64,000 bases of DNA from a virus. The stretch lies in the IMG/VR virus record IMGVR_UViG_2884379107_000001, one strand, 5' to 3'. Each line of letters opens with the position of its first letter. The stretch's first letter is position 1. The notes beneath the pieces are model-generated. The model did no database searches. It had not been told where the DNA came from and was given only the letters and a program-made list of their open reading frames with translations. The translations under genes and the position numbers were made by a program. Shown here piece by piece: positions 10,258 through 53,078 of the stretch.

Positions 10258-13200
10258 TTATAAAATACCCTTTGCCCGAAGGCCGTCATTCAGCCCATTG
10301 ATCGTCCCGTTCATCTTATCAAGTAGTTCATTGGTCTTTTCCAGCCGGGCCGTGTTGGTATCGATTCGGTTGAGGGCCAGTAACTGCTGGTTCATGGTCG
10401 CATTGACCGATGCCTGACCAATCCGAATGGCGTTGATCTGACCCGCCAGCACAGATGCCGTTTCCTCCGTTACGCCTTTGATAGCGCCCGACAAAGCCGT
10501 TCCCTGGCTGGCTTTTGAGCCGGTTGACTTAAAAATATCCAGCCCGTATTGCTTGGCCGCATCCTGCGCGGAGGCTAACCCATCGTTGAATAGCTTCGTC
10601 AACTCATCGGCTTTACCAAAGAACCTTCCAAAATCATCCACCCAGTTATTATCCCCGTTAGGGCCTACACTGGCTTCGAGTTCTGCTTGTAACTGATCAA
10701 ACTGTTTGGAGAAAACCTGATTAAAGATTAACTGAGACAACAGGTTATCCAGAATCTTCGAGACTGAATCCCCAAAGGCCTGCGCAGATGAAGTGCCGTC
10801 TTCAAAGGCCCCGACCAGCGCATCACGCAAATCACTACCCAGTGAACCGGCCAAAGTGCTGATTACTTGGGTTATTTTTTGGTGAGCCTCATCAATTTGT
10901 TTTTGCCACTCTATTGTGGTTTGAACGAGGGCTTTTGTGCTGTCGTCAAGTAAATTATTGTCTATAAGACTCTGAGCAAGGGAGACATTGAGTTCGTCTA
11001 CTCCATCTTTCGACTTCTGAATCAGGTTAGGGTACAAAGCCAATAGGCTTCCAAACTCATCTGCCTTTTTGGTTGCCCCGCCAAATAGTGAGGTAATTCC
11101 ACCCACAATTCCACCCACCAAGCCACCTATTACGGCTGTGACAGGGGCCGCAATACCACCAACAAGCGCACCGATAGCGGCACCCGTTGCGGCTCCTGAA
11201 CTAATCAATTCGAGTGCTGATTTACTATCAAGGACATCCTTTAGCCCCTCTTTCGCCCTCCCCTGTTGCAGTTTTTTAAGTGACTCCTGAAATTTTAGTT
11301 GTGCATCATTGTATTGATTGATGTCATCTTTCAACTCGCCAATGCTATCCTGAACAAAGGCATTTCCTTTGCTTTTTGTCTGCAATCCCAATTGCTCATT
11401 AAGGAGTAGATTATACTGCTGTTGTTGATTGATGAGCGATTGATAGTAATCCGTTTCGGCTTTCTTTCGCTTTTCGGCTGCACTAGTGATAGCTGAAAAA
11501 ATGCCGACCACCCCCTGAATGATTGTTCCGTATAGCTGGGATTTGTCAGCACCCGTTTTAAGTGCCTTGTTAACCAAATCCATGTTAGAGGCTAGGTTAA
11601 CAAGTATGTTACCTACCTCGCCAGCCGAACCACCAACCTGTGAAAGCGCCTGACCAAATTGCCCGATATAGGACGAATACTGGCCAATGATTTTCTGCAA
11701 GCCCGTTCCGCCAGCCTGATTATTTAATTCGTTAAGGTGAGCTAGAGCCTCCCTGTATAGCTCATTTTCAGTGCCAATGGTTGATTTTATTTTGTCAACT
11801 AGTTTTTGCTGCCTTTCTATCTCAATCTTTTGGCGTTTTTCACCCTCAGCTAAAATTGCCTTAGTCGTGTTTTTGTATTCGTCGGTTTGTTCGATTTGAC
11901 GACGCTGGAAGTCTTCAAGTGCCTGCTTTTCGTCTGCATTAATAGCATCTAAGCCCTCCTTATACTCCTGACCTCGATTGTTAACGTAACGCTTATCCAG
12001 CTCAGAACGTAATTGGTCATATTGTTTTTTAATAGCCAATTGCTGCTGTTCCGAACCTGCATAATTGACCAGAAACTGATTGAGCTGGTCTTTTAATTGC
12101 TGTTGGGTCTGGACAATTTCAGTGGCCACTAGCCGCCGAATCTCAAAATCCTCTTTAGAGATTGGTTTTTTATCAAATAGCTCACTTTGTTTCTGATTGA
12201 GAATAACAAGGTAATCGGAAAGGCTACCCGCTTCCTGCTGAGCTTTTTGTAGTCCCTCGTTAAAGGCATCAAGTGCCGTTTTTTTACCAACTATGTTACT
12301 ACGTTGATCAAGCAAGGTACCTAGATTGCCCGTCTGACCGGGTGTTAGCCCTGCATTATCCCGTTCGTTTTCAAGGTTTGCAATTTGAGTGTTTAGGTAA
12401 TCTAAATAGGATTGACCCGATACGATCAGACCCGCAAACTGTCTGTCGGAAGCCTCTTTTCCGTACGCTTCGACCCACTGTGTATAAAGCTCGTATTGCT
12501 TTTGCTTTTCGGCTAATTCTTCGTCAAAGGATTTTACGGCCAGTTTTTTCCTAACTTCTTCTGCCTGCTGATCAGCCGCCAGTTTTTTGGCATTTAACTC
12601 ATTGAGTTTAGCAATATCGGTTTTTGGAGTCTTCTGAATGAGTTCATCCATTTTCTTGCTGATGGACTCATAATACGAGATACTACCAAAGGGGCCGACC
12701 TTGTCAGCGTCTTTTTCGCTTTTGGTTTTTTCACCCGTCAACCGACGACGCTGCGCTTCAAGTGTATTGATTTGCCGCTGTATGGTCGCATTTTTGGCAT
12801 CAGAATTTTCTAGACTTAACTGCTCTTTGTGGGCCGATATGGCCTCATCTAATTGCTTAATGGTTACCGCCCGAACGGCTTGCTTCGTGGTTTCAGCCTT
12901 AACGGTAGCATTGGCCGTTTCATCCAGAGCCTGTTGTTCTAACTTTAACTGCTCGCGGTAATCCTGCTCTTGTTTAGCTTTGTCAGCATTGAGTTTTCTA
13001 TTCTGTTCGGTAATTGCTTTTGCTGCATCAAAAGTACCTTCACTGCCCGCCTGACTAAGGTAAAGCATTGCTTTGTCTACAAAGCCAATTTCATTCTTAC
13101 CAGCTTTGGCTTGAGATTCCCGCTGAAAGGATTCCGTAAACTTTCGGTCAAGTTCCTGTTGTTCGTATTTTCGCTTCAGTGCATCGACATACTCATTGAT

Positions 13201-14523
13201 AGACTTCGTGCCAGCCTGCGTTTTAATGCTATCCAGGGTTAAAGCGCTGAGGTGTTCAGGGGAAAGGGCGATTAAGTCCCTGAGTGCCTTATTGCGGGCA
13301 TCTCGACTTAATTTTTCATTGTTAATCGTGGTTTTTAACTGTTCGATTTTTGCCCGCTCTGTATCCGTCTGAGCATTTGCACTTTCTCTGGCTTCCCGCA
13401 AATCCTGTTCTATCTGTTGGGTAGCCGTTAGCTCCTTTTTATAGACAATAATGGCCGTTGTCAGGGCTATAATAGCCGTAGCCGCCAACACCCAGGGATT
13501 AGCAGAGGTGGCCAGATTAAAGGCAATCTGAGCATCTTTGGCACTGCGTATCGTTGTGGCCAGACTTAGCCACGCCTGAACGTTTCCCGCAATATTAGCC
13601 GCGGCCTGAACAATAGCTGTAAGGGCTATGGCACTTTTATAGGCCCCATAGGTTGCGATTAATATCTTTAAGGGACCTAAGATTTGCTCATAACTTTCAA
13701 CTATATCAGTTGCGCCAGAAATAATACTCACCAAAAGGTCTTGATTATCCTTGCCAATCTGATTTAGCATGCCTTTCCAGGCATCAGCCAAATTAGAGGT
13801 TAATCCCGTCAGCGATTTGGCCTGTTCGGCCATTAAGCCGCCAAAATTGAGCTTGCCTGTGCCATCCACAAGACTTGTGATCGCCTGCTCAACTTCTTTG
13901 AAGCCTATTTTGCCAGAAGCGACCATTTGCCTTATGTCACTTTCATTTACCTTTAGTAAACGAGATAATTCTGGAGTCAGATTTATACCCCTCTCTATCA
14001 GTTTGTTAAGGTCATCTTGCTGCGCTATTCCCTGCGTTTTAATCTGGCCGTATGCCGCAACTAACTCAAGCAAATTTGAACCAGTGCCAGCCGCAATATC
14101 TCCCAATGTGGTGAGCGTAGGTATGATACTCTGCACACTGAACCCGTAGGCCAACATTAACTTTTGAGCTTTGGCTATCTCATCAAGTTCAAAAGGGGTT
14201 TTGGCGGCAAATTCAATACCTTGCTTTAAAAATGCATCGGCTTTTGATTTGCTACCTAACAAAACTGTGTAAGCGACCTCTAAAGCCTGAACCTCTCCCC
14301 GAACTCGAATTAATTGTTGAGGCAATTCCGACAAGCCAGCGAAAGCAAATGCACCCGCGGCCAACCGGCCCAAGTTTTTGAAAGAATCATCAATTTTCCC
14401 AGTCTCCCGAACGGCGGTAGTGGACAACCCCAATATTCTTCTTTCCATTAGGTCCAAGCGGTTCATAAACTGAGAATCGTTTATGATCGCATCGAAGGAC
14501 AGGGCACCCGAATTGGAGGTCAT
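10258..14523 (-). CDS. Tape measure protein (complete, 1421 aa)
   Basis: N-terminal tape-measure motif (FAAKTPFEL...LGDIAAG...YGQIKTQG...DLNKLIERGI), long coiled-coil region, Gly/Ala-rich hydrophobic segments. Lies upstream of Dit and Tal. Confidence 0.92.
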   Translation of the reverse strand: MTSNSGALSFDAIINDSQFMNRLDLMERRILGLSTTAVRETGKIDDSFKNLGRLAAGAFAFAGLSELPQQLIRVRGEVQALEVAYTVLLGSKSKADAFLKQGIEFAAKTPFELDEIAKAQKLMLAYGFSVQSIIPTLTTLGDIAAGTGSNLLELVAAYGQIKTQGIAQQDDLNKLIERGINLTPELSRLLKVNESDIRQMVASGKIGFKEVEQAITSLVDGTGKLNFGGLMAEQAKSLTGLTSNLADAWKGMLNQIGKDNQDLLVSIISGATDIVESYEQILGPLKILIATYGAYKSAIALTAIVQAAANIAGNVQAWLSLATTIRSAKDAQIAFNLATSANPWVLAATAIIALTTAIIVYKKELTATQQIEQDLREARESANAQTDTERAKIEQLKTTINNEKLSRDARNKALRDLIALSPEHLSALTLDSIKTQAGTKSINEYVDALKRKYEQQELDRKFTESFQRESQAKAGKNEIGFVDKAMLYLSQAGSEGTFDAAKAITEQNRKLNADKAKQEQDYREQLKLEQQALDETANATVKAETTKQAVRAVTIKQLDEAISAHKEQLSLENSDAKNATIQRQINTLEAQRRRLTGEKTKSEKDADKVGPFGSISYYESISKKMDELIQKTPKTDIAKLNELNAKKLAADQQAEEVRKKLAVKSFDEELAEKQKQYELYTQWVEAYGKEASDRQFAGLIVSGQSYLDYLNTQIANLENERDNAGLTPGQTGNLGTLLDQRSNIVGKKTALDAFNEGLQKAQQEAGSLSDYLVILNQKQSELFDKKPISKEDFEIRRLVATEIVQTQQQLKDQLNQFLVNYAGSEQQQLAIKKQYDQLRSELDKRYVNNRGQEYKEGLDAINADEKQALEDFQRRQIEQTDEYKNTTKAILAEGEKRQKIEIERQQKLVDKIKSTIGTENELYREALAHLNELNNQAGGTGLQKIIGQYSSYIGQFGQALSQVGGSAGEVGNILVNLASNMDLVNKALKTGADKSQLYGTIIQGVVGIFSAITSAAEKRKKAETDYYQSLINQQQQYNLLLNEQLGLQTKSKGNAFVQDSIGELKDDINQYNDAQLKFQESLKKLQQGRAKEGLKDVLDSKSALELISSGAATGAAIGALVGGIAAPVTAVIGGLVGGIVGGITSLFGGATKKADEFGSLLALYPNLIQKSKDGVDELNVSLAQSLIDNNLLDDSTKALVQTTIEWQKQIDEAHQKITQVISTLAGSLGSDLRDALVGAFEDGTSSAQAFGDSVSKILDNLLSQLIFNQVFSKQFDQLQAELEASVGPNGDNNWVDDFGRFFGKADELTKLFNDGLASAQDAAKQYGLDIFKSTGSKASQGTALSGAIKGVTEETASVLAGQINAIRIGQASVNATMNQQLLALNRIDTNTARLEKTNELLDKMNGTINGLNDGLRAKGIL

Positions 14524-14531
14524 TGTGAGAT

Positions 14532-14579
14532 AGTTGGGCTTATAAACTGCTTACAATATAAGTAGTTTATAAGCCAACT
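14532..14579. promoter_or_regulatory. Long palindrome upstream of TMP containing a 27-bp site shared with 41566-41592
   Basis: AGTTGG(G)CTTATAAACT...AGTTTATAAGCCAACT. The core 14543-14569 matches 41566-41592 at 26 of 27 positions in inverted orientation. Confidence 0.65.
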
Positions 14580-14736: not shown

Positions 14737-15330
14737 TTACAAATGTGATAGCAAAGCAAGTTGAGTGGGCCGAAACATGACAACATCATAAACAAGGGGG
14801 CTTAGATTGGGATCTGCCTGAACCTTTTGCCTTCTAACCTCAACCTCAACCCCACCCTTAATCCATACATCTGAAACACTACGGGTGGACATGTACTCCT
14901 GCCCAAAATGCTTTGTGAGGTATTTACTTAAAATTAATGAACCGGCTGGCGTAGCACTTGTAGTTCCATGTGCAAGTAGTTTCAAGGCCACCAACTTATT
15001 CTGGTCAAACAAGGGTATAAATAAGGCATCTACGCTACCTGGTAAAGAGTCTGACTTAATTTCCAGAGCATAATCAGCTTTGCTATACCTAAATAAAGTT
15101 TTATTAGCCACCAATCGACTAAAATTATAATCATAGTCCTGCTTACTCATACCAAATCTAAAGCCCAAGATGATGTTGTTATCAACTTTCGCCTTAAGGT
15201 TTTCCCTTCTGACACTATCAATTTGTTCGCCAGAAAAGGCAAATGATTTGGTTGACTCGGATTCAGTTTTTTTTGAGCAACCCCATAACAAGGAGAGGCT
15301 AAATAGTAACAAAACAAGGCGTACCTTCAT
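14737..15330 (-). CDS. Lipoprotein moron (superinfection-exclusion candidate)
   Basis: Start MKVRLVLLLFSLSLLWG|C at 15330 with a lipobox Cys. Lies directly upstream of the TMP gene. Confidence 0.75.
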   Translation of the reverse strand: MKVRLVLLLFSLSLLWGCSKKTESESTKSFAFSGEQIDSVRRENLKAKVDNNIILGFRFGMSKQDYDYNFSRLVANKTLFRYSKADYALEIKSDSLPGSVDALFIPLFDQNKLVALKLLAHGTTSATPAGSLILSKYLTKHFGQEYMSTRSVSDVWIKGGVEVEVRRQKVQADPNLSPLVYDVVMFRPTQLALLSHL

Positions 15331-15378: not shown

Positions 15379-15433
15379 GTTACGCAACGTGAAAATTACA
15401 TGTAGCTACATAAAATATTGCTTCTAGGTAAAG
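15379..15433 (+). repeat. Copy 1 of the GTTAC...CATGTAGCTACAT...GGTAAAG site
   Basis: CATGTAGCTACAT-AAAATATTGC-TTCTAGGTAAAG at 15399-15433, with GTTAC 20 bp upstream. Confidence 0.7.
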
Positions 15434-15539
15434 GAAGGGATTAACATATCATTTTAGTGTTGTGGGTAGGTCTTAACCAATTGCCTCTTGAAAGGAGGAA
15501 TTTTTGAGATTAAGACACGAGCCGCTTACTGGCTATCTA

Positions 15540-15576
15540 CCATTTTCGTACTTTACTTCCCAAAGTACGAAAATGG
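15540..15576. repeat. Palindrome CCATTTTCGTACTTT-N7-AAAGTACGAAAATGG
   Basis: Perfect 15-bp arms with a 7-bp spacer. Related copies at 17668-17696 and 17765-17791. Confidence 0.75.
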
Positions 15577-15800
15577 CCCCTTGACTCCTCTCCTACTCGT
15601 ATTGGGCATTGTGGTTGTGGAAGCCGACAAACTAGTGATGAACTTACTGCTACGGAACGATTAAATTTAAAAACCAATATTTATTGATATTTTTTATGTA
15701 AGTTGCTTACCTCTTAGGTAATCACTTCACTCTGAGGCTCCTTCTCCGCCCCCTGCATTCTAAGCTGTCGGTCAAGCTACTTCATTACTAACCCTAGTAA

Positions 15801-16514
15801 ATGACACGGCATGCCAACGAATGGTCTGGTTCGAACCAACAGACTTTCTCCCGCTTTTATGATACCTACGCCCCTAAGCTATGGGGCCTTATTCTACGCG
15901 CCAAGCTGCCTACTTCGCGGTCCGAACGTATTCTAAGCAGCACCTTCAAGAAGGCTTGGCCACAGCTTAGCCAGCAGACATCAACTAGTGCGTCTACGTT
16001 CACCTGGCTGCTCACCTTAGCTTACGGCGAGGGATTGCCGCCTATTCAACCAGCGGAACTCATGAAAAACGACAATCGTTCATCGCAACCTGTATACGTT
16101 CTACTGGCAGGCTGTTGCCCCGACGATCAAGCCCTGCTCGCCCAGAGTTTGAAAACCAGTATGCCTCAGATCGAAATTGGCTTTATTCCAACAGTCAATC
16201 AGACATTACAGCATTTGCAAAACACGTCGCTTGAATCCAGGAAATTTCCTCGGCTACTGCTATTGAATGTAGAGAGAGCTGATGGCCAGTCCAATTGGCC
16301 GATTTTACAACAGATCAAAGTCAGTTATCGTCAATTACCCATTGTGCTTATTAGTACGGATCAACAAGGTGAACTAGCGCTACAAGCCTATGACCTGGGT
16401 GTTAATTCATTTTTGGTCAAGTCGTTAGACTTGGATGAATGGCAAAAGAAACTGGATGCGCTTGCCGATTACTGGCTTTCCATTGTTACCTTACCTAATC
16501 AACAAAAAAGCTAG
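15801..16514 (+). CDS. ECF-sigma region-2-like fragment fused to a degenerate receiver domain
   Basis: N-terminal FSRFYDTYAPKLWGLI...TFKKAW...FTWL. C-terminal LPIVLIST...AYDLGVNSFLVKSLD. The usual phospho-Asp position reads LLLLN. Confidence 0.65.
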   Translation: MTRHANEWSGSNQQTFSRFYDTYAPKLWGLILRAKLPTSRSERILSSTFKKAWPQLSQQTSTSASTFTWLLTLAYGEGLPPIQPAELMKNDNRSSQPVYVLLAGCCPDDQALLAQSLKTSMPQIEIGFIPTVNQTLQHLQNTSLESRKFPRLLLLNVERADGQSNWPILQQIKVSYRQLPIVLISTDQQGELALQAYDLGVNSFLVKSLDLDEWQKKLDALADYWLSIVTLPNQQKS

Positions 16515-16551
16515 AGCGATTTAAAGGCCTGTCTTCCTACTTACTTGAGCT

Positions 16552-17061
16552 ATGGTATTTTTCTTAACGACGATGGATCAACAGGGGGCGTCTCGCGAGT
16601 TCTCCCTGATGGGTGACTTAGAGGTAGCCTGTAAACTCTTTGATCATATCGCCAAAAAAGGCCATATCCTGCTTAAAGCTAGCGTGGTAGATGGCGACCG
16701 ATCTAGTGATATTCCCCTTGAATCATTTTATGGACCAGCTAGCTGGCCCGTTATCGAAGCCCTTGAACGGGAATGGAGCAACATCTTGAGTAAGCCTATT
16801 AACATTCGATCTGTTTGTGCCCGCAAACTTCCTGATATGATTTCTCGGCGAGTGGAGAGGCATCAAGCGTGCATTTTTCAGTTAGAGCAAGCTGTTGTCC
16901 TAGCCGAGCAACGGCTTCAACGCGTTTCTGCCACCATTCTGCGCGAACCCCACCGGGGTCGGATGCTGCATCAACTTGAAGGGGTTCTAAATCGCCACCA
17001 GCAAAACCTAGTTACCGAGCGAGCGAGCCTATCCAAATTCCTGGATCAAGCGACTCACTAA
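16552..17061 (+). CDS. Hypothetical protein (paralog of 17361-17627)
   Basis: The N-terminal 80 aa align by eye with the 17361 ORF. Confidence 0.65.
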   Translation: MVFFLTTMDQQGASREFSLMGDLEVACKLFDHIAKKGHILLKASVVDGDRSSDIPLESFYGPASWPVIEALEREWSNILSKPINIRSVCARKLPDMISRRVERHQACIFQLEQAVVLAEQRLQRVSATILREPHRGRMLHQLEGVLNRHQQNLVTERASLSKFLDQATH

Positions 17062-17075
17062 ACAATCTATTAGTT

Positions 17076-17264
17076 ATGGAGAAAGACGTGACACTATTCT
17101 GGCAAGTGTATAAACAAACAGCTAGTATCGAAACATGCATAGCGGAGCTAAAGCGAAAGGGCTTTAGTCAACTGGCTACCATCAAGGTATTATTGGTAGT
17201 ATCTGCTATAAGCCTGGTAGACGCGGATAAACTAGTCTCCAATTCACTGGCTTGGAGCAACTGA
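17076..17264 (+). CDS. Small hypothetical protein
   Basis: 62-aa ORF in the same operon. Confidence 0.5.
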   Translation: MEKDVTLFWQVYKQTASIETCIAELKRKGFSQLATIKVLLVVSAISLVDADKLVSNSLAWSN

Positions 17265-17360
17265 AATTGGGGTAGTAAAACCCCGCTCGCTAAGTTTCAA
17301 CTCATTGGTCAAACCCTTACAAGTGGTCATATGTATTAGGACTATATAACCTGATGGACT

Positions 17361-17627
17361 ATGATCTTCTTCATAACTACCCTCGATCGACAAGGTGATT
17401 ACCGGCATTTTCACTTTGACCTGCCCGAATTAGAAACCGGCCTTGAGGTGTTGAATAGAATTGTTGCCAAAGGGGAAGTTTTAGTCAACGTGACTTTGAT
17501 CGACGGTAGCAGCATCATCCACCTGCCTATAGCTGCTTTTGATGGCCAGCCTTGCCAAGCAGCTATTCATGCGTTAGAGCTGGATTGGCGTGAACTTCTC
17601 AACAGTACAATTGACAAAAAGGGTTAG
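17361..17627 (+). CDS. Hypothetical protein (paralog of 16552-17061)
   Basis: MIFFITTLDRQG...ALELDWRELLN versus MVFFLTTMDQQG...ALEREWSNILS. Confidence 0.65.
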   Translation: MIFFITTLDRQGDYRHFHFDLPELETGLEVLNRIVAKGEVLVNVTLIDGSSIIHLPIAAFDGQPCQAAIHALELDWRELLNSTIDKKG

Positions 17628-18014
17628 TTCTACCCAGCATGTTAGCATGAATACGGCCATTCTGCCGTTTCGTACTTTTCTTCTTAAAGTACGAAAATAG
17701 GCATGCTTTTAGGCTTCCAAACCCCCTTGAAACTTCCTATTTGGACGTTTTGCAATGGATTTATTTTCGTACTATTCTAGGAAGTACGAAAGCGGGCTGT
17801 GTCGCTTTAAACGCCCGTTTTTACGAGACGGCCTGTCTAAGCTGAAAATGATATTTATAGAAGTTACTTAAGATCTCAAATTGCCATCTCGCGAAACAAC
17901 GTTTCCTTTTTACTATCACACTTGAGTTTGTGAGTAATTGGAAACTTTTTTCTATACTACTAATGCTGGTGTTGACTCTACCATTAATGCACTACATTAA
18001 AATGTAGAATAAGT

Positions 18015-18070
18015 GTTACCTAAGCGGGCCTAAATCATGTAGCTACATCAAATATTGCCGTTGGGTAAAG
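18015..18070 (+). repeat. Left 56-bp inverted repeat of the nuclease cassette
   Basis: GTTACCTAAGCGGGCCTAAATCATGTAGCTACATCAAATATTGCCGTTGGGTAAAG is about 80% identical to the reverse complement of 21861-21916. Confidence 0.8.
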
Positions 18071-18073
18071 AAA

Positions 18074-18107
18074 TAGGCCGACATCGTTTTAGGGGATTGT
18101 CGGCCTG
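18074..18107. terminator. Hairpin terminating the nuclease operon
   Basis: AGGCCGACA...TGTCGGCCT stem directly after the 18114 stop. Confidence 0.65.
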
Positions 18108-18113
18108 TTTCTG

Positions 18114-21500: not shown

Positions 21501-21558
21501 ATTAACATAACAAATATATCAATTGTCAACATATATATCAACAATAAGAATAAAAAAA

Positions 21559-21765: not shown

Positions 21766-21860
21766 AACCCCTTTATCAAAATCTTATTTCGTATAAAGGT
21801 AAGCAGTAGACGTTTATCTACAGTAAAGTGAAAGTTTCTTTCATATAAATGAACTCCTCG

Positions 21861-22280: not shown

Positions 22281-22398
22281 TCAGTTTCCTCGCAGTCTGA
22301 GAGGCTATTAATAGAAATTCAGTTTACATTAGAATATATCAAAAGCGGACTTTAAGAGTACTAACGTTAATATAAATTAATAGACTATCAAGAAAAAA

Positions 22399-23646: not shown

Positions 23647-23664
23647 ATTCTATAAAGAGAATAT

Positions 23665-24489: not shown

Positions 24490-24903
24490 TTAGTGTGAGA
24501 TAATTTGCTGTACTAAGAACGACAAACTCCCTTATCATCGCAAATGTATTCCCGACTACCGGCAAGATTTGCTGTATATACATGATTTAAACCGGTTGGT
24601 GCAACTACCCATTGTTCAAATAATCGTCCAAAATGTTTTCACTATGATCTCTTAAACAAAACTATTCTGGTATTGTGATGCAGATCAAGAGGCAACCGCA
24701 GAAACTACGACTAGTGGCACAAAAACTACAACACCTTAAAAATCAACCAATTACTAAAGTTGCTCACAAAAATACTAATGATTTTTCTGCGAATACGCGT
24801 TTCAAGCTTGACAACTCCTTGACAAGGCGCTACCTTTATTTAACAATCCATTTGCCCTCACTACAGACGGAGCGCACACAATCTTTTAAAGACGTGTACT
24901 CCT

Positions 24904-25158
24904 ATGAGCCGGACAAGAACCCCCCAATCGGGCAACCGCAAGCCCTCCACCCCTACTTGGCTGGATAAGTTCGAACACCTTTCCCGAATCCTATACCGTT
25001 ACTGGCGCTGGCATCTTCAGTTTGCAGCTATTATTCTTTGTGGTATTTTCTTGAAGCCTGAAGTGGCCACTATTTTGATTCCGGCCATTACGTTACTCGG
25101 TGGAGCATCGACGATTAAGGAACTCAGGAGGGGGTATAGGACTAAGCCGGATGAGTAG
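24904..25158 (+). CDS. Small membrane protein
   Basis: 84 aa with two short hydrophobic segments. Confidence 0.45.
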   Translation: MSRTRTPQSGNRKPSTPTWLDKFEHLSRILYRYWRWHLQFAAIILCGIFLKPEVATILIPAITLLGGASTIKELRRGYRTKPDE

Positions 25159-25491
25159 ATGAGGTAATTGCAAAATAAATATACACAACTGAATATGTTC
25201 ATTGACTCAATAAAGGGTATTTTTCCCGTAGGAAGTGAAGGAAATAAAGGGTTATTTGCCTTTTTGAGTAAAGCTTTATATGACTAAGCTAATTCTCATA
25301 GTTTTTGGACTGTTCTTTATTTTGCTACTTGATAAGTAATAATTTGTTAGATAACGGGGCAAATAAATGACATATAGTCAATAAGAGTTCCTAACCATCA
25401 ATTTGCCTTGTGACAAGGTTTTTGGGATAAAAAAACAACTATTCACAAAGAATATTTTGTAACTAATTACAATATATAATATAGCAATCAT

Positions 25492-26358
25492 ATGGATATT
25501 GCAACGTTTGTTGGTATAGTAGGTGTCGCAATAGCAGTATTAGCATGGCTTAAGCCCAAAAGTCCAATTTTAACAACCCCGAAAACTCCAGTTAATTCTG
25601 TCCATGTAGATATTTTAACACATGTAAAGGAGACTAAAATATTACGTGTAGGTTACTGCCACTATCCTCCCTTTTGCTATTCCACCGTAGATGATGTTGA
25701 AAAACATGACGGCCTATATATCAATCTTCTTCGGGCATTTTGTCAAACTCAAGGTATCGAAGCTCAATTTGAACAGATACGTTTTTCATCCTCTATAGAC
25801 TATTTACTCGCCGATAAAGCTGATATTTTGTTATCAATTTTTCAAACTCCGAAACGTAGCCGAAGTGTAGATTTTACCGCTTTCTTACATACGGTGTCTG
25901 TATCTGGTATAGTACGCAAAACAGAGAATAGAATCACCTCACAGTCAGATTTATTACAGTATCCCCTCACCTTTGTCGTCTGTAGAGGTGAGATTGGGCA
26001 TGAACTTTTAGAGACGTCTATAAAGATCAGTCCGAGTAAAGTTACTGTAATAGATACAAGCAACATCGCTGATATCGTTGCCTTTGTTGCGGCTAAAAAG
26101 GCAGATATAGCTATTGCAGATAGCTTATCTTGCCAGCATGCATTAGATGCAAGAGGAGCAGAAGGTCCTCTTCTTAAGCCAGTTCTGCGAAGGCGCCCAT
26201 TATATCTTTGCCAAAATGGGATAATGTTACCCTTAAACCAAGAAAAACTCTCAGATTGGCTGGATAAAGGACTTAAATCGCAATTAAAATTACCAGAGTT
26301 CCAAATAATGGAAAATGATTTACTTGAAAAGTATAATGGGATAATATCAAAGATTTAA
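25492..26358 (+). CDS. Orphan class-3 (amino-acid type) solute-binding protein with an N-terminal TM anchor
   Basis: LRVGYCHYPPF...DGLYINLLRAF...ADILLS...TPKRSRSVDFT...ADIAIADS. No permease or ATPase gene adjacent. Confidence 0.8.
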   Translation: MDIATFVGIVGVAIAVLAWLKPKSPILTTPKTPVNSVHVDILTHVKETKILRVGYCHYPPFCYSTVDDVEKHDGLYINLLRAFCQTQGIEAQFEQIRFSSSIDYLLADKADILLSIFQTPKRSRSVDFTAFLHTVSVSGIVRKTENRITSQSDLLQYPLTFVVCRGEIGHELLETSIKISPSKVTVIDTSNIADIVAFVAAKKADIAIADSLSCQHALDARGAEGPLLKPVLRRRPLYLCQNGIMLPLNQEKLSDWLDKGLKSQLKLPEFQIMENDLLEKYNGIISKI

Positions 26359-26557
26359 TTTTCAAAATGAGTTGGACGCAGTTGCTCCCTTTAGGAAAGT
26401 TAATTAGTGAGCGAAAGTCATTATACCCTCTTATAAATTTCAGCAAAAAGTTAAATGTAGATCAAGACTGAGTACTATTATAACTGTAAAGCCAATTTGA
26501 GCCTAATTTTTTGAAGCATAAAAAGGGTATTTTTTTCGAAGGGTTTTTCGATTAATA

Positions 26558-26594
26558 ATCTTCTTTGTAGCTTGGGCAAAGCTACAAAGAAGAT
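26558..26594. repeat. Perfect 16-bp inverted repeat
   Basis: ATCTTCTTTGTAGCTT-GGGCA-AAGCTACAAAGAAGAT. Confidence 0.8.
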
Positions 26595-26745
26595 TTATCT
26601 AAACCTTAAAACTTGAATACCCCTATCAGTTCCATACATAAGTATGTGTAATCATAAAATAATTAATACTTTAGGACAAAAGGAAAAATAAGACAGGTAA
26701 TACATAAGTTCCTTGCTCAAAAATAAAGACACTAGTCTAAACTTT

Positions 26746-29250
26746 ATGAAGACAAAATACTTTTTCTTCTCGGTATCAATATTAATGTTATTTGCTTTCA
26801 TCATACCTAGAAAGGCTACTGCGCAAAACGAAATACATGAATATGTAGAAACATCTGACTTGGAACTATGTGAAGGAGATATTTTTACCGTTTTCAATCA
26901 ACAATTCATACAAGCCAAAGCTAAGGTTCTATTTAAAAAAGGATATTGTGGGTCATATGGTGTGCGTCAGTATAGTTACCCTAATGATGCAGAATTTACA
27001 TATAATACTGAAAATTTGATTGAAGTAAATGGTTATTACTATAAGGACTCCTACAATATTGACGAAAGAAAAATAAATTATATAAAGTATGTAGCTAAGC
27101 AATCGACCCAAATAATAGTGCAAAATGTTTCTAATATAGAATATGAATTTGAGGAAAAAACTTGTGATGCTCCAGATTTAATTCGGATTACATATAAATA
27201 CATTTACAATATTCATGTCTCTCCAAAGAAAGCTCCTCAATTATCATATAATAAAATCATTGTACAGAATAATGAAGAGTTAATAAAGCTATCGGTAAAT
27301 GGATGTAATACTCAATACCCTTATGTGCAGAAATTTATCTCTACTAATGAAAATCCCAATCCTCCTAAGTCAAATCAAGGAGGTGGCACGTTAATTAGTA
27401 GCTTTGAGGCTCCTTTTGCATTAGATAAATCTACAACATTTTATGTAAGATGCAAGAATGATTTTTGTGTTAGTGACTGGTCTAACCCTGTGCATATTGA
27501 CGTTCTCCCAACGGTTCAACATTTTCACCAACTCCCTCAAAAACCTTTATTTCAAACCCGAATAAAACTTGCCCAAGGAAGTAGTTTTAAGGTCTGTGCG
27601 GACGGTTCGCAGGCTTCTGTGTTTACTGTTTCACGAGGGGGGTATGATTACAGTCAGGCAGTCATTAAAATACCCCTCGCAGATGTTACTACAGCCGGAA
27701 GCTTTTCTATTATTCAACGAAACCGGGATAGTCTGGTTGTTAGCTATAAGCACCCGGATTATATACAAACAACAGGTATATCAATCACCCTTGTTGCAGG
27801 AGTGTATGCCACCCCAACCAGCACAACGGCCTTGTCTACGTTTGACATTACTGTTTACCATGCTCCGGTGGTGATGGTTCACGGATTTGAATCAGATGCT
27901 TCTGGTTTCAAAAAAATGGAAGATAAGTTAAGTATATCGGGTTGGCCGAGCTTCCTGTTACTTCGAGCTGATTATGGGCCTACCAGTAGGAAACATTTTG
28001 CCGTTAATAAACAAGTGGTACCCCAAGGTATCAACATCCTACTGGGTCAGCTTCGCCATATGGGGATAGCTGCTGGCAAAATGGATGTTATCGGCCATAG
28101 TATGGGGGGGCTATTAATTCGGCAGTATTCACAAAGTACTGAGTATGAAAATGATATTCACAAGGTTGTCACGCTAAACACACCACATTCTGGATCGCAA
28201 TTCGCAAACATAAGTAAAGACTTGTCGCTTAATCCCTTAAATGCTTTCCGTGACTTATTTGCTCTTGGAGTTAACGCATGGGTCGATGATGGGGCCGTAA
28301 CGGATTTAGCAGTTGGGAGTGATGCGATTAATAGTTTGAATCAAAGTGATAATCGAGTACGTCATCTTTTGCCAATTCATACAATTGTTACTACTTACCC
28401 TTATGTATATAAGTCACCTAGTGACCGAGAAGGTAATTTTTTGCTAAATAATTTTGTAATGGTATTAGGTGATTTGTTTAGTTTGAACCTTAATAATACA
28501 TATGGTGAATCAACTCATGATTTAGTGGTAACCCTAAGTAGTCAACAAGGAGGACTTTCTGGCTCCTGTGTTGATTTAATTACAAATCAGATTCATTTAG
28601 GATCAATGGAAAATGATCAAGTCATCACCAAATTCATGTTTTTACTACAACAGCCTAGCACTTCCCTTAATTTCTGTCAGAATGGCTTTTCTCCTCCTAC
28701 TCTTACATACACAAAGGTATTTTTAGCCCCTAAAGTAAATATTCAGTCCGCCAGAACAGCCTTGGCTTCCATAAAAATTAATTTACCAAATCAAGGTAAA
28801 ATAGTAAAAGGAGGTAGTTCTGTTCAACTACAGGCAACTGGAAGTGGCTTATCAAGTCTATGGCTTTTTGTTAGTTATTCGCCCGACTCTACTTACAATG
28901 GATTTAAGAACGGTAATACAGCCAATTTTACGTTTACAATAGATAAGAATATTGGAAAGCGATTAGTAGTTGCAATTGGTAAAACATCCACTGGGGAATT
29001 CGTTGCTGATTCAACCTACTTCTACGTCAGTAATAATTTCTGCGAATCCCTTCAATCAGGTAATTGGACAGCCTCCTCTACCTGGTCATGTGGCCATGAG
29101 CCAACCATAGCTGATATAGTAACGATCAATTCCAGTCATATTATTACCGTATCGACTAGCACCGCCCAAACCCAAAGAATTGTTTTTAACGGTGGAACAA
29201 TCAAGTATACACTTTCTGGAAATAAAATTTATTTAAAAATGTATGAATAA
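26746..29250 (+). CDS. Secreted alpha/beta-hydrolase (lipase/PGAP1-like) with an Ig-like domain and a C-terminal G8-like module
   Basis: Signal peptide MKTKYFF...ATA|Q; VVMVHGF, GHSMGG nucleophile elbow, TLNTPHSGS, DLVV; C-terminal SGNWTASSTWSCGHEP. Confidence 0.8.
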   Translation: MKTKYFFFSVSILMLFAFIIPRKATAQNEIHEYVETSDLELCEGDIFTVFNQQFIQAKAKVLFKKGYCGSYGVRQYSYPNDAEFTYNTENLIEVNGYYYKDSYNIDERKINYIKYVAKQSTQIIVQNVSNIEYEFEEKTCDAPDLIRITYKYIYNIHVSPKKAPQLSYNKIIVQNNEELIKLSVNGCNTQYPYVQKFISTNENPNPPKSNQGGGTLISSFEAPFALDKSTTFYVRCKNDFCVSDWSNPVHIDVLPTVQHFHQLPQKPLFQTRIKLAQGSSFKVCADGSQASVFTVSRGGYDYSQAVIKIPLADVTTAGSFSIIQRNRDSLVVSYKHPDYIQTTGISITLVAGVYATPTSTTALSTFDITVYHAPVVMVHGFESDASGFKKMEDKLSISGWPSFLLLRADYGPTSRKHFAVNKQVVPQGINILLGQLRHMGIAAGKMDVIGHSMGGLLIRQYSQSTEYENDIHKVVTLNTPHSGSQFANISKDLSLNPLNAFRDLFALGVNAWVDDGAVTDLAVGSDAINSLNQSDNRVRHLLPIHTIVTTYPYVYKSPSDREGNFLLNNFVMVLGDLFSLNLNNTYGESTHDLVVTLSSQQGGLSGSCVDLITNQIHLGSMENDQVITKFMFLLQQPSTSLNFCQNGFSPPTLTYTKVFLAPKVNIQSARTALASIKINLPNQGKIVKGGSSVQLQATGSGLSSLWLFVSYSPDSTYNGFKNGNTANFTFTIDKNIGKRLVVAIGKTSTGEFVADSTYFYVSNNFCESLQSGNWTASSTWSCGHEPTIADIVTINSSHIITVSTSTAQTQRIVFNGGTIKYTLSGNKIYLKMYE

Positions 29251-29379
29251 CTAATGCTCAAAGTGGATCTTATTTTGGAAAGTCCACCAATAAGTATGGA
29301 TTTATGTTCTCATTTATAGGCTTTTAATAAAACAAGTGCTAGCTACCATTTACCAACGTAATACTCTAAAAAGCGGACT

Positions 29380-29898
29380 TCACAAGTACAAAGTTTTTCT
29401 CCTCTTCAGGCGAACAAATTGATAGCGTTAGAAGGGAAAACCTTAAGGCAAAAGTTGATAGCACTATTATTTTGGGCTTTAAGTTCGGCATGAGTAAGCA
29501 GGACTACGATTATAACTTTAGTCGGCTTATAGCCAATAAAACCTTATCTCATTACAGTAAAACCGAATACGACTTAGATATTGAAGCAGACTCACTACCT
29601 ACCTTTGTAAGTGGCCTATTTACCCCCATATTTAATAAAAAATGAATTAGTTGCACTAAAGATGTTAGCACATGGAACGACTAGCGCCACACCTGTAGGC
29701 TCAATAGTTTTGAGTAAATACCTTTCCAAGCATTTTGGGCAAAAGTACTTGTCCGCTCGAAGTATTTCTGATATATGGATAAAGGGAGGGGTTGAGGTAA
29801 AAAGAGAAAAGGTTCAGACTGATCCGAACCTAAGCTCTCTTACTTATGATGTAGTTATGTTTCGGCCAACTCAACTTGCTTTGTTGGCGCATCTCTAA
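29380..29898 (+). pseudogene. Frameshifted, 5'-truncated inverted copy of the 14737-15330 lipoprotein gene
   Basis: GEQIDSVRRENLKAKVD...MSKQDYDYNFSRL, then a frameshift near 29636, then NELVALKMLAHGTTSATP...FRPTQLALLAHL. Confidence 0.85.
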
Positions 29899-29972
29899 TT
29901 TTCTCCTCCTAATACCTGGCATAAAGGAAGGCATAGCAAAGTGTTTATAGTTTAACAAAGATTCAACAAAAG

Positions 29973-30938
29973 ATGGAGGAAAATCAAAAGAAAAGTCTCA
30001 ATATCCGTTCTTTACCTGGTGTTATTGTTAAATTAGATAAAACAAAATTTTATTTATTAGAACAGACAAGTCAGAGCGAAGCATATGCCATAGAAGAACT
30101 TTCACAAGCCGACATTGATAAAATCAATTTTAGCAACAATGTAATGCTTGAGTACATGTACTTTAAAAGAAAAAAACTAGAAATAAAATTAAACTATGAT
30201 GAATTCCTAGAAATTAACAAAACATATAATGAGCAAATGGCAAAAATTGAGCCAGCTATATTTGACATAAACTATGATAGTGAAATAAGCTTTATAAATA
30301 CAAATAGAATCTTTACCAATTATATTAATTCATGTAGAATTTTTATTGATCATTTAGATGGAAAATTGAATCACAAATATGGAAAAGAGTCTTTCGAGTA
30401 CAAGACTTTTAAGCAAGCTAAAAGTTATTGTTACGATAATTATTTCTCATATAAATTCTTTTATCATTTAAGGAACTATGCTGAACATGTTGACTTCCCG
30501 ATACATGATGTAATTGTTGAACACAGTAGTGATGAAAAAGGTAGTGACAAAGAAATTGAAACTTCATTTAATTTATTCTTTAATAGAGATGAGTTATTGA
30601 AATGTCCTAATATTTTTAAAAAAATTGGAAATGAGTTAAAAGTTAAGGAAGAGCAAATTCCTGTTTTGCCATTAGTTGAAGAATATGAGGCCACTATTGA
30701 AATTATCCTTGATAGCCTTTTAATAGCAGAAAGAAATTTTTACATAAACAATATGAACGAATTAAAAAATATTTTTGATAGACGAAAAATGGGAGGCACG
30801 CTTTATTTACTTAATATTTATGAAGATGAAGAAAAGCAACTTAAAATGAACTTTCCAGGATTGCGTTTTGATGTTGTCAAGTTTATGATTGCGGATTATA
30901 AAGACTTGGATCCGCGCTATGGTTTTAGTGAGAAATAA
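29973..30938 (+). CDS. Hypothetical protein with a HEPN-like Rx4H motif
   Basis: Helical protein containing YKFFYHLRNYAEHVDFPI (RNYAEH at 30471-30488). Confidence 0.6.
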   Translation: MEENQKKSLNIRSLPGVIVKLDKTKFYLLEQTSQSEAYAIEELSQADIDKINFSNNVMLEYMYFKRKKLEIKLNYDEFLEINKTYNEQMAKIEPAIFDINYDSEISFINTNRIFTNYINSCRIFIDHLDGKLNHKYGKESFEYKTFKQAKSYCYDNYFSYKFFYHLRNYAEHVDFPIHDVIVEHSSDEKGSDKEIETSFNLFFNRDELLKCPNIFKKIGNELKVKEEQIPVLPLVEEYEATIEIILDSLLIAERNFYINNMNELKNIFDRRKMGGTLYLLNIYEDEEKQLKMNFPGLRFDVVKFMIADYKDLDPRYGFSEK

Positions 30939-30985
30939 CAATAAAAAACGATACTTTACAAATTTGAAATAATTGAAATAATTTT

Positions 30986-33292
30986 ATGGCTATAAACACT
31001 ATAGTTGATGAGGTTAAAAAAAATGCACCAAAAGGCCTAAGCGAAGAAGAGTATTGCAAATGGCTTTCAGACTATTTGAATTCAAAGCTCAATAAACATA
31101 ATTACTGTAGAGAGTATATTGAAGAAAATACCAAAAAGAGTGCAACAGCTATAAGTTTCTTGATAGATTTATCCAATAAGCTAGCTAATGAATTAGAAAA
31201 TAATGGTCAGCATTGGATGGCACTATTGAAAATTCGCTCAAATAGGTTTAAGTTTATAAATTATAATAAAGGTGAATTTTTATATTTTGACTTTAGCTAT
31301 CTAGCTAATATTTACAATGAGATTAATTATTTACATGAATCAATTTATAAAATATTAAAGGAAATTGATAGGTATAATATAATCTACATACTAGATGATA
31401 TTAATTATATTGTATCAATAGAAAGTGAAATAGAGTTGCAGAAAAAAAATAAACTAAAACTCTTAAGTTATAAGCTTATTAACATTAGAAAATCAATTAG
31501 TAAAAATATAAAATCTTTAATATATCGACCTAAAATCATATTACTAATTATAGCCTTTGTTGTTCCTGTAATCATATACTTTAATCCTTTTCATATTATA
31601 GTTAAGGCAGACTCACAACAAACTATTACATTATCTTTACTAGGCGCAATCACTTCGTTTCTAGGTTTTTTGGTCGTTTTCCTGCAAATATCCTATGAAA
31701 ATCAAAAGAAGCTATATGGTCAGTATGTCAAAAAACTATTGTTCAATGAAACATGGCAGGATTTAATATTAATTTTTACAATTACAGCTGGATGCTGTCT
31801 ATTATCATCATTATTAAAAGATGACGACTTTTTTCATGTCGGAGATATTGCCTTCAATGTAGCTATATTGGGTTTTATACTTTTTTTTATTTTCCTAATC
31901 CCGGGAACGAAAAAAATTCTCAACAATTCCTTTTCTATTACCGAATTAAAAAGACTTGTTAATAGGATCGACTTAGAAGCAGTTCAGCAACATGTACAAA
32001 CTGTTAGCCGAGCCAATTTTTTTGAAAGTGCATTAAATATTTATGAGCATAATCCGATAGCCATTCTTAATGATATAATAAAAAATAGTTTAATTAATAA
32101 AGAATATCGAATAGTTAATTTATTAATAAATGAAATTACTAATCGCTATGAATTCCTATTAGATGGGATAAAAAATAAATCATTTTTCGATGAATCGTTA
32201 ACTTGGAAAACTCATACTTATAAAGAAACTATTGAGTCATTTATAGAATTTAGTCATTTTGTATATAATAATTGTTTAAAGGAAAGTTCAGATAATTACG
32301 CATCTATGATTGTTAGTAGCCAAAGAAGCCTTGTAGTTAAAATGGCAATTCTTGGCGTTAAAATGGAAGAGATAAGGCCTTTATTAAATACTATTCGTGA
32401 ATTTGTTGAAACATTTGCTAATCAATCAAAATATAAATTAACAATTGATGGTCTTGATGAATATTATTATTGTTTATATGAGATTATTAATCATAACACG
32501 CCCAAAGAGGAAGATTTGTCCTATTCAGAAGGTAGTAGAAAGTTGATATATGATGACAAAAATTACGACAATTATAATGCAGAGCTGGAATGGCATATCA
32601 TAAGAGAAGCTATAGTAAGAAATTATGAAGATTTGATAAAATATTGTATTGAAAGATTGCCCAGTAATGACAAAAATTTGACAATAAAGATAATAGAAAT
32701 CTATAAGAGATCATTAAATTTCATATTGCCTGAAAAGTCAAATCTCGATGAACGTAGAATTTTTGAGCTTTTGCACTCATATTGTGCATTTGTTTCTGAA
32801 CTTTATAAAGAATTATTAAATAGTATTAGTAATAATGAAAAAATATGGTCCGAACCTTTTTTCTCTTTTGAAGTAATAGACCTTTTGAAGAAAAATAAAA
32901 ATTATTCATTCATCATGGCAAACTACTGGCTTTGGTGGATGGAATTTAAAATTAATGAAAAAAAGCTAAAATTAATTTTTTTTGACGAAATCAAGGAATT
33001 CATTTTTTCAATTCTGAGGGAAAATATTTCCATTGAAGTAACTTCAGAATATTTAATTGCGTGCATTAATCTATATAATTTAATTTTTGAAAACTATAAA
33101 AATGACACTTTTAAGCCTTATTCAAATATAATTGAGAGCTCTTTAAATCAACTCGAAAGTATTGAGAACAAATTAAATGAAAACCCTGATATTTACAACA
33201 AAGTCATTTTAGCTGTAAATAATGCAAAAACTTTATATGAACCACAAAAAGTTAAATCAATGAAGGCTGTTAAGAAACCTAAAAATAATTAA
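30986..33292 (+). CDS. 768-aa protein with four central TM helices and large helical N- and C-terminal domains
   Basis: Hydrophobic segments at about aa 183-310; very AT-rich coding sequence; 47 bp after the HEPN-like gene. Confidence 0.75.
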   Translation: MAINTIVDEVKKNAPKGLSEEEYCKWLSDYLNSKLNKHNYCREYIEENTKKSATAISFLIDLSNKLANELENNGQHWMALLKIRSNRFKFINYNKGEFLYFDFSYLANIYNEINYLHESIYKILKEIDRYNIIYILDDINYIVSIESEIELQKKNKLKLLSYKLINIRKSISKNIKSLIYRPKIILLIIAFVVPVIIYFNPFHIIVKADSQQTITLSLLGAITSFLGFLVVFLQISYENQKKLYGQYVKKLLFNETWQDLILIFTITAGCCLLSSLLKDDDFFHVGDIAFNVAILGFILFFIFLIPGTKKILNNSFSITELKRLVNRIDLEAVQQHVQTVSRANFFESALNIYEHNPIAILNDIIKNSLINKEYRIVNLLINEITNRYEFLLDGIKNKSFFDESLTWKTHTYKETIESFIEFSHFVYNNCLKESSDNYASMIVSSQRSLVVKMAILGVKMEEIRPLLNTIREFVETFANQSKYKLTIDGLDEYYYCLYEIINHNTPKEEDLSYSEGSRKLIYDDKNYDNYNAELEWHIIREAIVRNYEDLIKYCIERLPSNDKNLTIKIIEIYKRSLNFILPEKSNLDERRIFELLHSYCAFVSELYKELLNSISNNEKIWSEPFFSFEVIDLLKKNKNYSFIMANYWLWWMEFKINEKKLKLIFFDEIKEFIFSILRENISIEVTSEYLIACINLYNLIFENYKNDTFKPYSNIIESSLNQLESIENKLNENPDIYNKVILAVNNAKTLYEPQKVKSMKAVKKPKNN

Positions 33293-33344
33293 TTTTAGAT
33301 AGACATAATTCTCTAAAAGTTTCAGTATGCCTATCCCCCCCCTT

Positions 33345-33515
33345 CTACCTCCTCACTATCCGCCAAACCGTAGACCTCGCCTTAATCCCAAACTTTCTCA
33401 TCACTTCCTGCTCAACCGCCGTTTTCATCACTCCCGGCTTCACCACTAAGGCGCTATAACAGGCCCGTATTTTCTCCCAACGCTTTTCCCGTTTCCTTCG
33501 CTGAGGTGTTTTCAT
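33345..33515 (-). CDS. 56-aa basic HTH-like protein (below the track cutoff)
   Basis: MKTPQRRKREKRWEKIRACYSALVVKPGVMKTAVEQEVMRKFGIKARSTVWRIVRR; start overlaps the stop of the truncated TMP. Confidence 0.55.
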   Translation of the reverse strand: MKTPQRRKREKRWEKIRACYSALVVKPGVMKTAVEQEVMRKFGIKARSTVWRIVRR

Positions 33516-33796
33516 TTCACTAGAGTGGTTAAGTTTTTAAACATTCTCTCCAACAACTGCTGGAATTCACCCCGAACTTTGAGAATCTGGGCGGGTAGCT
33601 GAGTAAGGGCCGTAAACGAGAAGTACCCGGCTGCCAGTTGGCCTAACCGGGTAAACTGGGCATCGAGCTTATTGGTCTCCCGAACGGTGGTATTGGACAG
33701 GCCCAGCACCCGGCGCTCCATAGCGTCGAGTTGAGACTTCCAGTTCACATCGTTGATACTCGCATCGAACGCCAGTGGCCCGCCCAGGTTATTCAT
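33512..33796 (-). pseudogene. Truncated native tape measure gene (about 82 homologous codons)
   Basis: MNNLGGPLAFDASIND...MERRVLGLSNTTVRET...VRGEFQQL aligns with the N-terminus of the 10258-14523 TMP and is coupled to the chaperone gene. Homology ends near 33550. Confidence 0.88.
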
Positions 33797-53076: not shown

Positions 53077-53078
53077 GG

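Follow-up and report, generated by a model that had tools for sequence, protein, structure and literature searches.

How does a siphophage tail operon stay usable once its tape measure protein (TMP) gene has been parted from the tail assembly chaperone gene, and what carried the TMP gene away? This question is raised by IMG/VR record IMGVR_UViG_2884379107_000001, a 64,000-nucleotide stretch of DNA (the window, in what follows) that holds a siphovirus-type prophage of a Spirosoma whose genome is a single contig of 8.66 Mb. A preliminary description of the window held that the chaperone-coupled TMP ends after about 82 codons. It also placed a full-length but divergent TMP, with its own upstream palindrome, 19 kb away and directly before the Dit gene, and described the 5' and middle parts of that gene as richer in AT than its phage-like 3' end. 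All of these observations stand. The explanation developed here, which has roughly an even chance of being right, is that a phage with directly joined chaperone and TMP genes recombined with a phage bearing an endonuclease-linked cassette of cargo plus TMP, with homing as the inferred driver.

The open reading frame (ORF) coupled to the chaperone (33796-33512, minus strand) encodes 94 amino acids, and its start overlaps the stop codon of the chaperone T frame as ATGA. It is homologous to TMP for exactly 81 codons: the match to phrog_9959 (E 4.7e-17) is confined to family positions 1-81, does not extend over the whole length of a TMP, and stops after ...KVRGEFQQL at window position 33554. These 81 codons are free of stops and frameshifts. 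With residues 1-81 of the prophage's own complete TMP the stub shares 56% identity. It is closer to the N-termini of two full-length TMPs from direct-junction phages, in which TMP is coupled to the chaperone: 84% identical in Spirosoma sp. 48-14 and 78% in S. terrae. Its G+C content at third codon positions (GC3), 0.69, resembles that of the head and tail genes. Together these comparisons support the view that the chaperone-coupled TMP is a remnant of a TMP allele other than the prophage's own. At the nucleotide level, the stub and the full-length gene also share a 31-nt stretch of 87% identity (D4). Synonymous divergence (dS) of the stubs is saturated, so the ratio of nonsynonymous to synonymous divergence (dN/dS) is uninformative on stub age.

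Beyond codon 81 the stub ORF reads into a short non-TMP tail, which is followed by a small basic ORF, s56. A resemblance of the tail to the C-terminus of the chaperone T frame is kept as no more than an impression gained by eye, as the local DNA alignment with S. validum and genome G031 spanned only s56. Searches with tblastn find s56 at 57% identity in L010:18831-18667 and at 49% in L011, and its DNA aligns over 33515-33348. In S. validum and G031 a homologue of s56 lies directly 3' of the chaperone.

The full-length TMP ORF (14523-10258) is unbroken and matches phrog_9959 at E 2.6e-133 and Pfam PF20155 (TMP_3) at 71.5 bits, with a cut-off of 41. It is the sole full copy of this family in the 8.66-Mb genome, and its length of 1421 amino acids compares with 1412-1487 in eight relatives. 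The gene lies 19.0 kb downstream of the stub, and Dit begins 72 nt downstream of it. Relative to the TMP of S. arboris it is 69% identical overall and 84% identical across residues 82-600, and comparison with relatives shows the TMP itself to be mosaic.

Base composition sets most of this gene apart from the tail genes that follow it. GC3 is 0.35-0.50 across TMP codons 1-1250 and 0.55-0.64 in the last ~170 codons; in Dit, Tal, p519, p1369 and the capsid gene it is 0.62-0.66. The maximum-likelihood change point falls at codon 1306 (support 1231-1318; log-likelihood gain 38.9), with a GC3 of 0.436 before it and 0.623 after. The region that differs in composition runs from just past the stub to about TMP codon 1306 (~33.55 to ~10.6 kb, ~23 kb), which supports both the foreign composition of the working TMP and its physical linkage to the island upstream. 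The GC3 step within the TMP 3' end is probably older, because the TMPs of S. arboris and S. validum are also low in GC3 relative to their own Dit and Tal.

From the stub onwards, the island consists of s56, variable cargo, an XRE-AntA-HNH-GIY-YIG operon, a small cassette, a lipoprotein gene and the complete TMP (Table 1). Its GC content is 0.26-0.50 against 0.51-0.57 in the tail genes, and it qualifies as a moron in lying between chaperone and TMP with a base composition unlike that of its neighbours. None of the cargo genes at 21920-33300 occurs at the same site in S. arboris or S. validum. A search of the cargo with PADLOC returned weak matches only (AbiP-like, 3.9e-5; LmuA-like, 2.5e-4), and on its sequence a defence role for the cargo is a likelihood.

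Table 1. Coordinates of features in the window (strand and remarks where given)
Feature	Position	Strand	Remarks
Full-length TMP	10258..14523	-	1421 aa; codons 1 to ~1306 low in GC3 and cassette-linked
Compositional right boundary inside TMP 3' end	10569..10830	-	Change-point analysis
TMP stub	33554..33796	-	Codons 1-81, direct-junction-type allele; phrog_9959 positions 1-81
Non-TMP tail of stub ORF, left junction	33512..33553	-	13 codons, LERMFKNLTTLVK, then stop
s56	33345..33515	-	Basic 56-aa ORF (...STVWRIVRR); no Pfam or PHROG family
Late-type palindrome before TMP	14543..14569		~25 nt upstream of TMP start codon
Reference late-operon palindrome and -7 box	41566..41592		Before first structural gene (41525)
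HTHx4-GIY-YIG-NUMOD3 homing endonuclease	19514-18114	-	Last gene of the operon below
Selfish or regulatory operon	18114..21765	-	Transcribed towards TMP
XRE gene	21765-21559	-	First in operon; followed by p182 and p115
AntA-type gene	20615-19863	-	Operon
HNH gene	19866-19507	-	Operon
Lipoprotein moron	14737..15330	-	MKVRLVLLLFSLSLLWGC...; own terminator ~14640-14690
Inverted, frame-broken lipoprotein-gene paralogue	29388..29898	+	76-81% identical to 14737-15252
Plus-strand cassette	15801..17627	+	237, 169, 62 and 88 aa
Dyad element	15400, 18037, 21883; variant 24573		~55 nt, core ATGTAGCTACAT; within 15380..21916
Variable cargo	21920..33300		AT-rich, GC 0.26-0.41
AbiC-like gene	22399-23646		Cargo
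p274	23665-24489		Cargo; 274-aa ORF
SBP_bac_3 protein	25492-26358		Cargo
Alpha/beta-hydrolase	26713-29250		Cargo; 845 aa
321-aa and 768-aa unknowns	29973-33292		Cargo
Tail assembly chaperone	33793..34538	-	G frame 34538-34011, -1 T frame 34425-33793; phrog_15994, phrog_11996
785-aa GDSL-like protein	34573-36930		Between tail tube gene and chaperone
Tail tube	37517-37017	-	
Capsid gene	40495-39413	-	
Dit	10186-9533	-	Own palindrome at 10202-10220
Tal-like protein	9551-7665	-	
Endolysin	43912-44400	+	
Tyrosine integrase	55175-53820		

Split in this way, the operon looks functional when its regulatory sequences are read. A hairpin followed by a T-run, read as a terminator, closes the lipoprotein gene; TMP would therefore have to start its own transcript, within the ~120 nt that hold the palindrome. 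This palindrome agrees at 26 of 27 bases with the one that abuts the TATATTTG -7 box ahead of the late operon. In the whole window there are exactly three occurrences of the pattern CTRCTT-N7-AAGYAG (0.01 expected), one each ahead of Dit (10202), TMP (14547) and the first late gene (41570), and a variant also precedes the TMP of S. arboris. The split operon would work because TMP and Dit each have a late-gene palindrome of their own, which would probably switch them on with the other late genes, with no need for read-through from the chaperone. TTGCTTY boxes are clustered only at the main late promoter (41755-41815), with no such cluster before TMP, and no claim is drawn from them. The chaperone itself is intact, and its -1 slippery site, at 34038-34032, has the canonical form A_AAA_AAT.

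The layout has close parallels among related prophages. The survey searched 401 genomes of the family with the chaperone and the 81-residue peptide and extended to metagenome, genome and viral contig collections, and ~75 loci were examined. Chaperone homologues directly precede TMP in relatives, and at least 11 prophages have TMP coupled directly to the chaperone, including those of Spirosoma sp. 48-14, S. terrae and several Dyadobacter. Three others are split and have no stub: S. arboris (by 19.4 kb), S. validum (14.4 kb) and Fibrella forsythiae (22.5 kb). All three carry XRE-(p182)-AntA-HNH-GIY-YIG just upstream of TMP, in the order and orientation of window positions 21765-18114. The cargo between chaperone and operon is unrelated from genome to genome: S. 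validum has TIR and GNAT proteins, and S. arboris has Ntox44, DyP, response regulators and an extra NUMOD4-HNH. Compared gene by gene, the window most resembles S. arboris between the GIY-YIG gene and Tal (62-77%), and in the capsid gene, p131 and the endolysin, as in the stub, it most resembles Spirosoma sp. 48-14.

Composition follows the same division. The TMP has a GC3 well below that of Dit and Tal in S. arboris and S. validum, and low GC3 coincides with the endonuclease module in all three genomes measured (the window and these two). In four prophages that lack the module, TMP and its flanks have equal GC3. A low-GC TMP allele therefore appears to travel with the module and the cargo site.

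Other variations on the TMP locus were seen in the survey. At one locus (L043, G234:C24) TMP lies on the strand opposite to the upstream chaperone and downstream Dit, which looks like an inversion of the gene. Another (L039, G091:C1) has an apparent internal tandem duplication of the first ~75 TMP residues within a single 1512-aa frame. In five direct-junction Dyadobacter loci (L044, L046, L048, L049 and L051), gaps of 3.6-12 kb separate the end of the TMP match from Dit, a hint that the tail operon has a second cargo site.

Endonuclease involvement is favoured on several grounds. The GIY-YIG protein of the operon (PF01541, E 3.5e-10; phrog_314, E 2.8e-30) and the neighbouring HNH protein match phage homing-endonuclease families. 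Aligned to the catalytic domain of I-TevI (1ln0, 1mk0), the former retains GIY...YVG and the equivalents of R27, E75 and N90. The same operon order upstream of TMP recurs in S. arboris, S. validum, Fibrella, genome G033 and an IMG/VR contig (L157, UViG_3300012890_000039). Strong matches to this GIY-YIG clade occur in 5 of the 401 family genomes, and the distance from each copy to a TMP of this family is 1.3-18 kb. This TMP type is present in about 24 family genomes, so the endonuclease is patchy and its site is always near TMP. More distant GIY-YIG loci in IMG/VR mostly (74 of 77) have no such TMP nearby.

Modules also occur as inward-facing pairs. Such pairs bracket TMP alone in G033 (L153) and in the IMG/VR contig, where the end of one GIY-YIG gene is 86 nt away from the TMP stop codon. 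In S. validum (L155) a pair surrounds the TMP-Dit-Tal block, and in Fibrella (L047 plus L054) a pair surrounds ~13 kb of cargo. Codon 81, where the stub ends, falls in the most conserved stretch of TMP, VRGEFQQLEIAFTTML. Conserved gene stretches are the sort of site that homing endonucleases such as the Seg and Mob enzymes of T4 tend to use.

Among 5.8 billion proteins searched for relatives the size of the stub, a single further stub came to light. It lies on a metagenomic contig (L056, Logan contig ERR12081944_5210, 7900-8350), within an island that bears the same module. There, too, homology to TMP stops at codon 81 (...KVRGEFQSL) and gives way to unrelated sequence. The two truncations are independent, because the window stub is far closer to a full-length TMP (84%) than to the second stub (67%). 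That both end at one codon is suggestive but does not amount to proof. Upstream of the second stub lie a late-type palindrome (GTGCTTATATTGCAAGTAC) and what appear to be the last ~13 codons of a chaperone T frame; its flanks hold an eCIS_core-domain gene and two genes for AAA-type ATPases.

The favoured reading, in which a direct-junction phage met a phage with an endonuclease-linked cassette, can be laid out as follows. The second parent would already have had the split layout. The left joint would be non-homologous, fusing a 48-14-like phage at TMP codon 81 to an arboris/validum-like phage just upstream of s56, and the stub would be its scar. Given a donor lineage that was already split, one non-homologous crossover would explain the stub, with no need for an insertion into a resident gene; one would be enough, given the gene-by-gene identities described above. 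The GIY-YIG and HNH endonucleases would cut endonuclease-less TMP alleles at or near the conserved VRGEFQQLE (codons 74-82), and repair from the endonuclease-bearing genome would copy the module, neighbouring cargo and much of TMP. The low-GC3 TMP that travels with the module is compatible with such co-conversion, not proof of it. The cargo would thus be a sizeable hitch-hiker that sits at a moron hotspot and is tied to a TMP allele, and no addiction module.

A more specific version of this reading, which we offer tentatively, treats the cassette as bounded by homing endonucleases specialised on the TMP of Spirosomaceae siphophages, which would serve both as homing target and as vehicle for spreading the island. 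Repair would then copy the module, a resistant low-GC TMP, the lipoprotein gene and up to ~20 kb of defence-like cargo into a rival phage. The TMP-adjacent lipoprotein would be a possible entry-exclusion factor matched to the TMP allele.

Several observations weigh against this reading. All relatives are 40-85% identical to the window, with no close parent of either side among them, too distant for a base-by-base reconstruction of the event. The prophage ends were not found: no direct repeat of at least 15 nt links the tRNA-Leu region (557-639) to the integrase side. The shared end point at codon 81 could be chance (~3%, by our own estimate given how it was found) or could reflect selection against longer fragments. 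The ~75 TMP loci added only one further stub, in G034, which ends at codon 53 before a 3.1-kb insert, and that genome lacks this GIY-YIG, so stubs can arise without it. Endonuclease-linked TMPs deviate in the conserved motif (p=0.004), as expected of alleles immune to cleavage, but their flanks are also more divergent (p=0.001), the motif-to-flank ratio is only weakly higher (p=0.04), and the Fibrella TMP has the consensus motif. The signature of an immune allele at this motif is therefore weak.

The rival that survives best is possible though doubtful: ordinary illegitimate or homologous recombination between phages would have made the same replacement, with the endonuclease operon a passenger at a moron hotspot and the codon-81 break a coincidence or the result of selection against longer, harmful TMP fragments. 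The G034 stub needs no endonuclease, and overall divergence explains most of the motif signal. Insertion of a moron between chaperone and TMP is known without endonucleases, in HK97 gene 15 (PMC3594210), and no module was detected with the Dyadobacter inserts of 3.6-12 kb at the TMP-to-Dit site. Several associations stand against this rival. Members of the GIY-YIG clade were found nowhere but near this TMP family, often doubled in inverted orientation so as to bracket TMP tightly; the two independent stubs with the same end codon both lie within module-bearing islands; and TMP is low in GC3 in the window and in both split relatives measured.

Less likely is a dead chimera, in which a chromosomal rearrangement would have fused pieces of two prophages into an element unable to make virions. 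The preliminary description had named a dead chimera of two prophages as its alternative, and the chimera part stands, as one of two phage lineages; nothing suggests that it is dead. The truncated essential gene at the joint would fit such an accident, as would the length of the element, at least 54 kb. No replication module was recognised in the window, and neither attachment-site (att) repeats nor clear prophage ends were found: no direct repeats of at least 15 nt link the left 40 kb and the window start to 49.9-64 kb. The head, tail, lysis and packaging ORFs are nevertheless all intact, as is the frameshift site; TMP has its late-type palindrome; and the 81 TMP codons of the stub have acquired neither stop nor frameshift. 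Three other species or genera share the layout at 40-75% identity, which would be unexpected for a decaying accident.

The preliminary description had itself favoured addiction by complementation, in which an island destroyed the resident TMP and carries the sole replacement, so that its cargo cannot be lost. We consider this improbable. It is true that the genome has one full TMP, that the stub could not measure a tail, and that cargo and TMP are contiguous and share a foreign composition. Yet TMP sits at the edge of the island, so that any deletion between the stub and the TMP start would spare it, and recombination between stub and TMP could rebuild a hybrid gene (56% amino acid identity; 31 nt at 87%). 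Relatives with the same module and TMP type carry wholly different cargo, which evidently turns over freely, and the split layout is older than this prophage. The linkage of TMP and cargo is real; enforced retention is neither needed nor supported. As for the wider proposal that a foreign segment inactivated the resident TMP and supplied its replacement, the foreign linked TMP and the stub from another allele hold up, and the inactivating insertion becomes dispensable with an already split donor and a single crossover. A resident gene broken by insertion and a chimera of two phages are descriptions of the same product.

An assembly artefact, or a site-specific integrative element inserted into TMP, is scarcely credible, since the genome is a single contig and independent assemblies of relatives share the layout; the integrative element was rejected because Pfam and PHROG matches reveal no integrase, transposase or serine recombinase in 14.5-33.5 kb, and the only repeat flanking the island is the 31-nt stretch that stems from TMP homology, with no att direct repeats.

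The smaller elements of the island add detail to its structure. The lipoprotein gene is 77% identical to the gene at the same place before the S. arboris TMP and has no family match. The split ORFs of its inverted paralogue also match the S. arboris lipoprotein (inverted repeats I1-I3), and the intervening 14 kb is therefore flanked by inverted repeats. Near-identical 31-nt hairpins (15544-15574 and 17668-17698) flank the plus-strand cassette. The dyad element spans 15380-15449, 18015-18070 and 21845-21916, with a variant at 24560-24589, and its core accounts for three exact 12-mers, all within the island. Copies lie at the 5' ends of minus-strand units (lipoprotein, XRE and p274) and after the GIY-YIG terminator, where the copy is conserved in S. 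arboris. The dyad may be an operator for the XRE protein or a recombination site.

In the wider prophage, Pfam and PHROG matches identify a morphogenesis block of siphovirus type on the minus strand, with three further large tail genes past Tal that reach 1692. Terminase, portal and MuF-like genes, like the endolysin gene, lie on the plus strand. The 785-aa protein upstream of the chaperone has a weak GDSL-lipase match and no counterpart in the related prophages examined. A tRNA-Leu(GAG) gene just past the last tail genes may mark an attachment site, and an 87-aa ORF beside it (733-996) is 76% identical to an ORF in the S. arboris prophage region. A UmuC/UmuD-like pair (51793-53543) adjoins the integrase gene, to the right of which (58258-63055) lie a C5 methylase and a fusion of SNF2 and N6-methylase; these genes may belong to the prophage. 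No close relative is present in the cultured phage collection, and the best TMP matches there are Riemerella phages at 33-35%.

Parts of this arrangement resemble known systems. Like HK97 gene 15, the island occupies the same place in the tail operon, differs in composition from its neighbours and contains accessory genes that may have their own transcription signals; here the lipoprotein gene, with a predicted terminator of its own, lies directly before TMP. HK97 has one small gene there and an undisturbed TMP, whereas here the insert is 19 kb long (3-22 kb in relatives) and the chaperone-coupled TMP is truncated. Also unlike HK97, the working TMP is a foreign allele with a late-type palindrome, and an endonuclease operon forms part of the package.

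The free-standing GIY-YIG enzymes SegB, SegF and SegG and the HNH enzyme MobE of T4-type phages are known for intronless homing, marker exclusion and co-conversion of flanks (PMC2988022, PMC2330249, PMC2790892; overview in PMC12724721), and flank gene conversion by such endonucleases is on record for both T4-type and lactococcal phages. The likeness lies in the I-TevI-like GIY-YIG domain with NUMOD and helix-turn-helix (HTH) modules, in genes that stand free between phage genes, in their patchy distribution among related phages, and in a neighbouring essential gene that looks as if it had been exchanged together with the endonuclease gene. Differences are that the genes here belong to a six-gene operon that also encodes an XRE regulator and an AntA-type protein, that they occur in temperate siphophages of Bacteroidota, and that the cleavage site is only predicted. 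In addition, inverted module pairs bracket a tail gene, and the co-transferred DNA (up to ~23 kb) would far exceed T4 tracts.

Two further comparisons concern cargo sites and joints. Prophages and satellites of the P2 and P4 types reportedly have hotspots of defence and accessory genes, as Rousset et al. are said to have described in 2022. The site considered here is likewise fixed between conserved phage genes and holds differing, partly defence-like cargo (AbiC-like, TIR, Ntox44). Unlike those hotspots, it lies inside the tail operon and splits it, and the TMP flank itself is swapped with the cargo. Mosaic "novel joints" with gene remnants have reportedly been described in lambdoid phages (Juhala et al., said to date from 2000, cited in PMC3594210). 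There, as here, a non-homologous joint within a gene is tolerated because an intact copy of the function arrives with the incoming DNA; here, unlike there, the break point recurs independently and is tied to an endonuclease-bearing cassette. The locus departs from known systems in its scale (14-22 kb within a tail operon), in having its TMP allele replaced together with the cargo, in the six-gene XRE-AntA-HNH-GIY-YIG operon, which often occurs as inverted pairs around TMP, and in the recurrent break at codon 81.

If homing is indeed the driver, selfish endonucleases would be able to shift an essential tail gene between temperate phages, together with tens of kilobases of defence-type cargo. 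Phage mosaicism, moron and defence hotspots, and intronless homing, which are usually studied apart, would then be linked at one locus. The palindrome copies at TMP and Dit would explain how a tail operon works though split by 14-22 kb. Without homing, the locus is still a clear, datable non-homologous joint in an essential gene, rescued by an incoming copy. Either way, it marks a site of variable cargo in Bacteroidota prophages where new defence genes can be sought.

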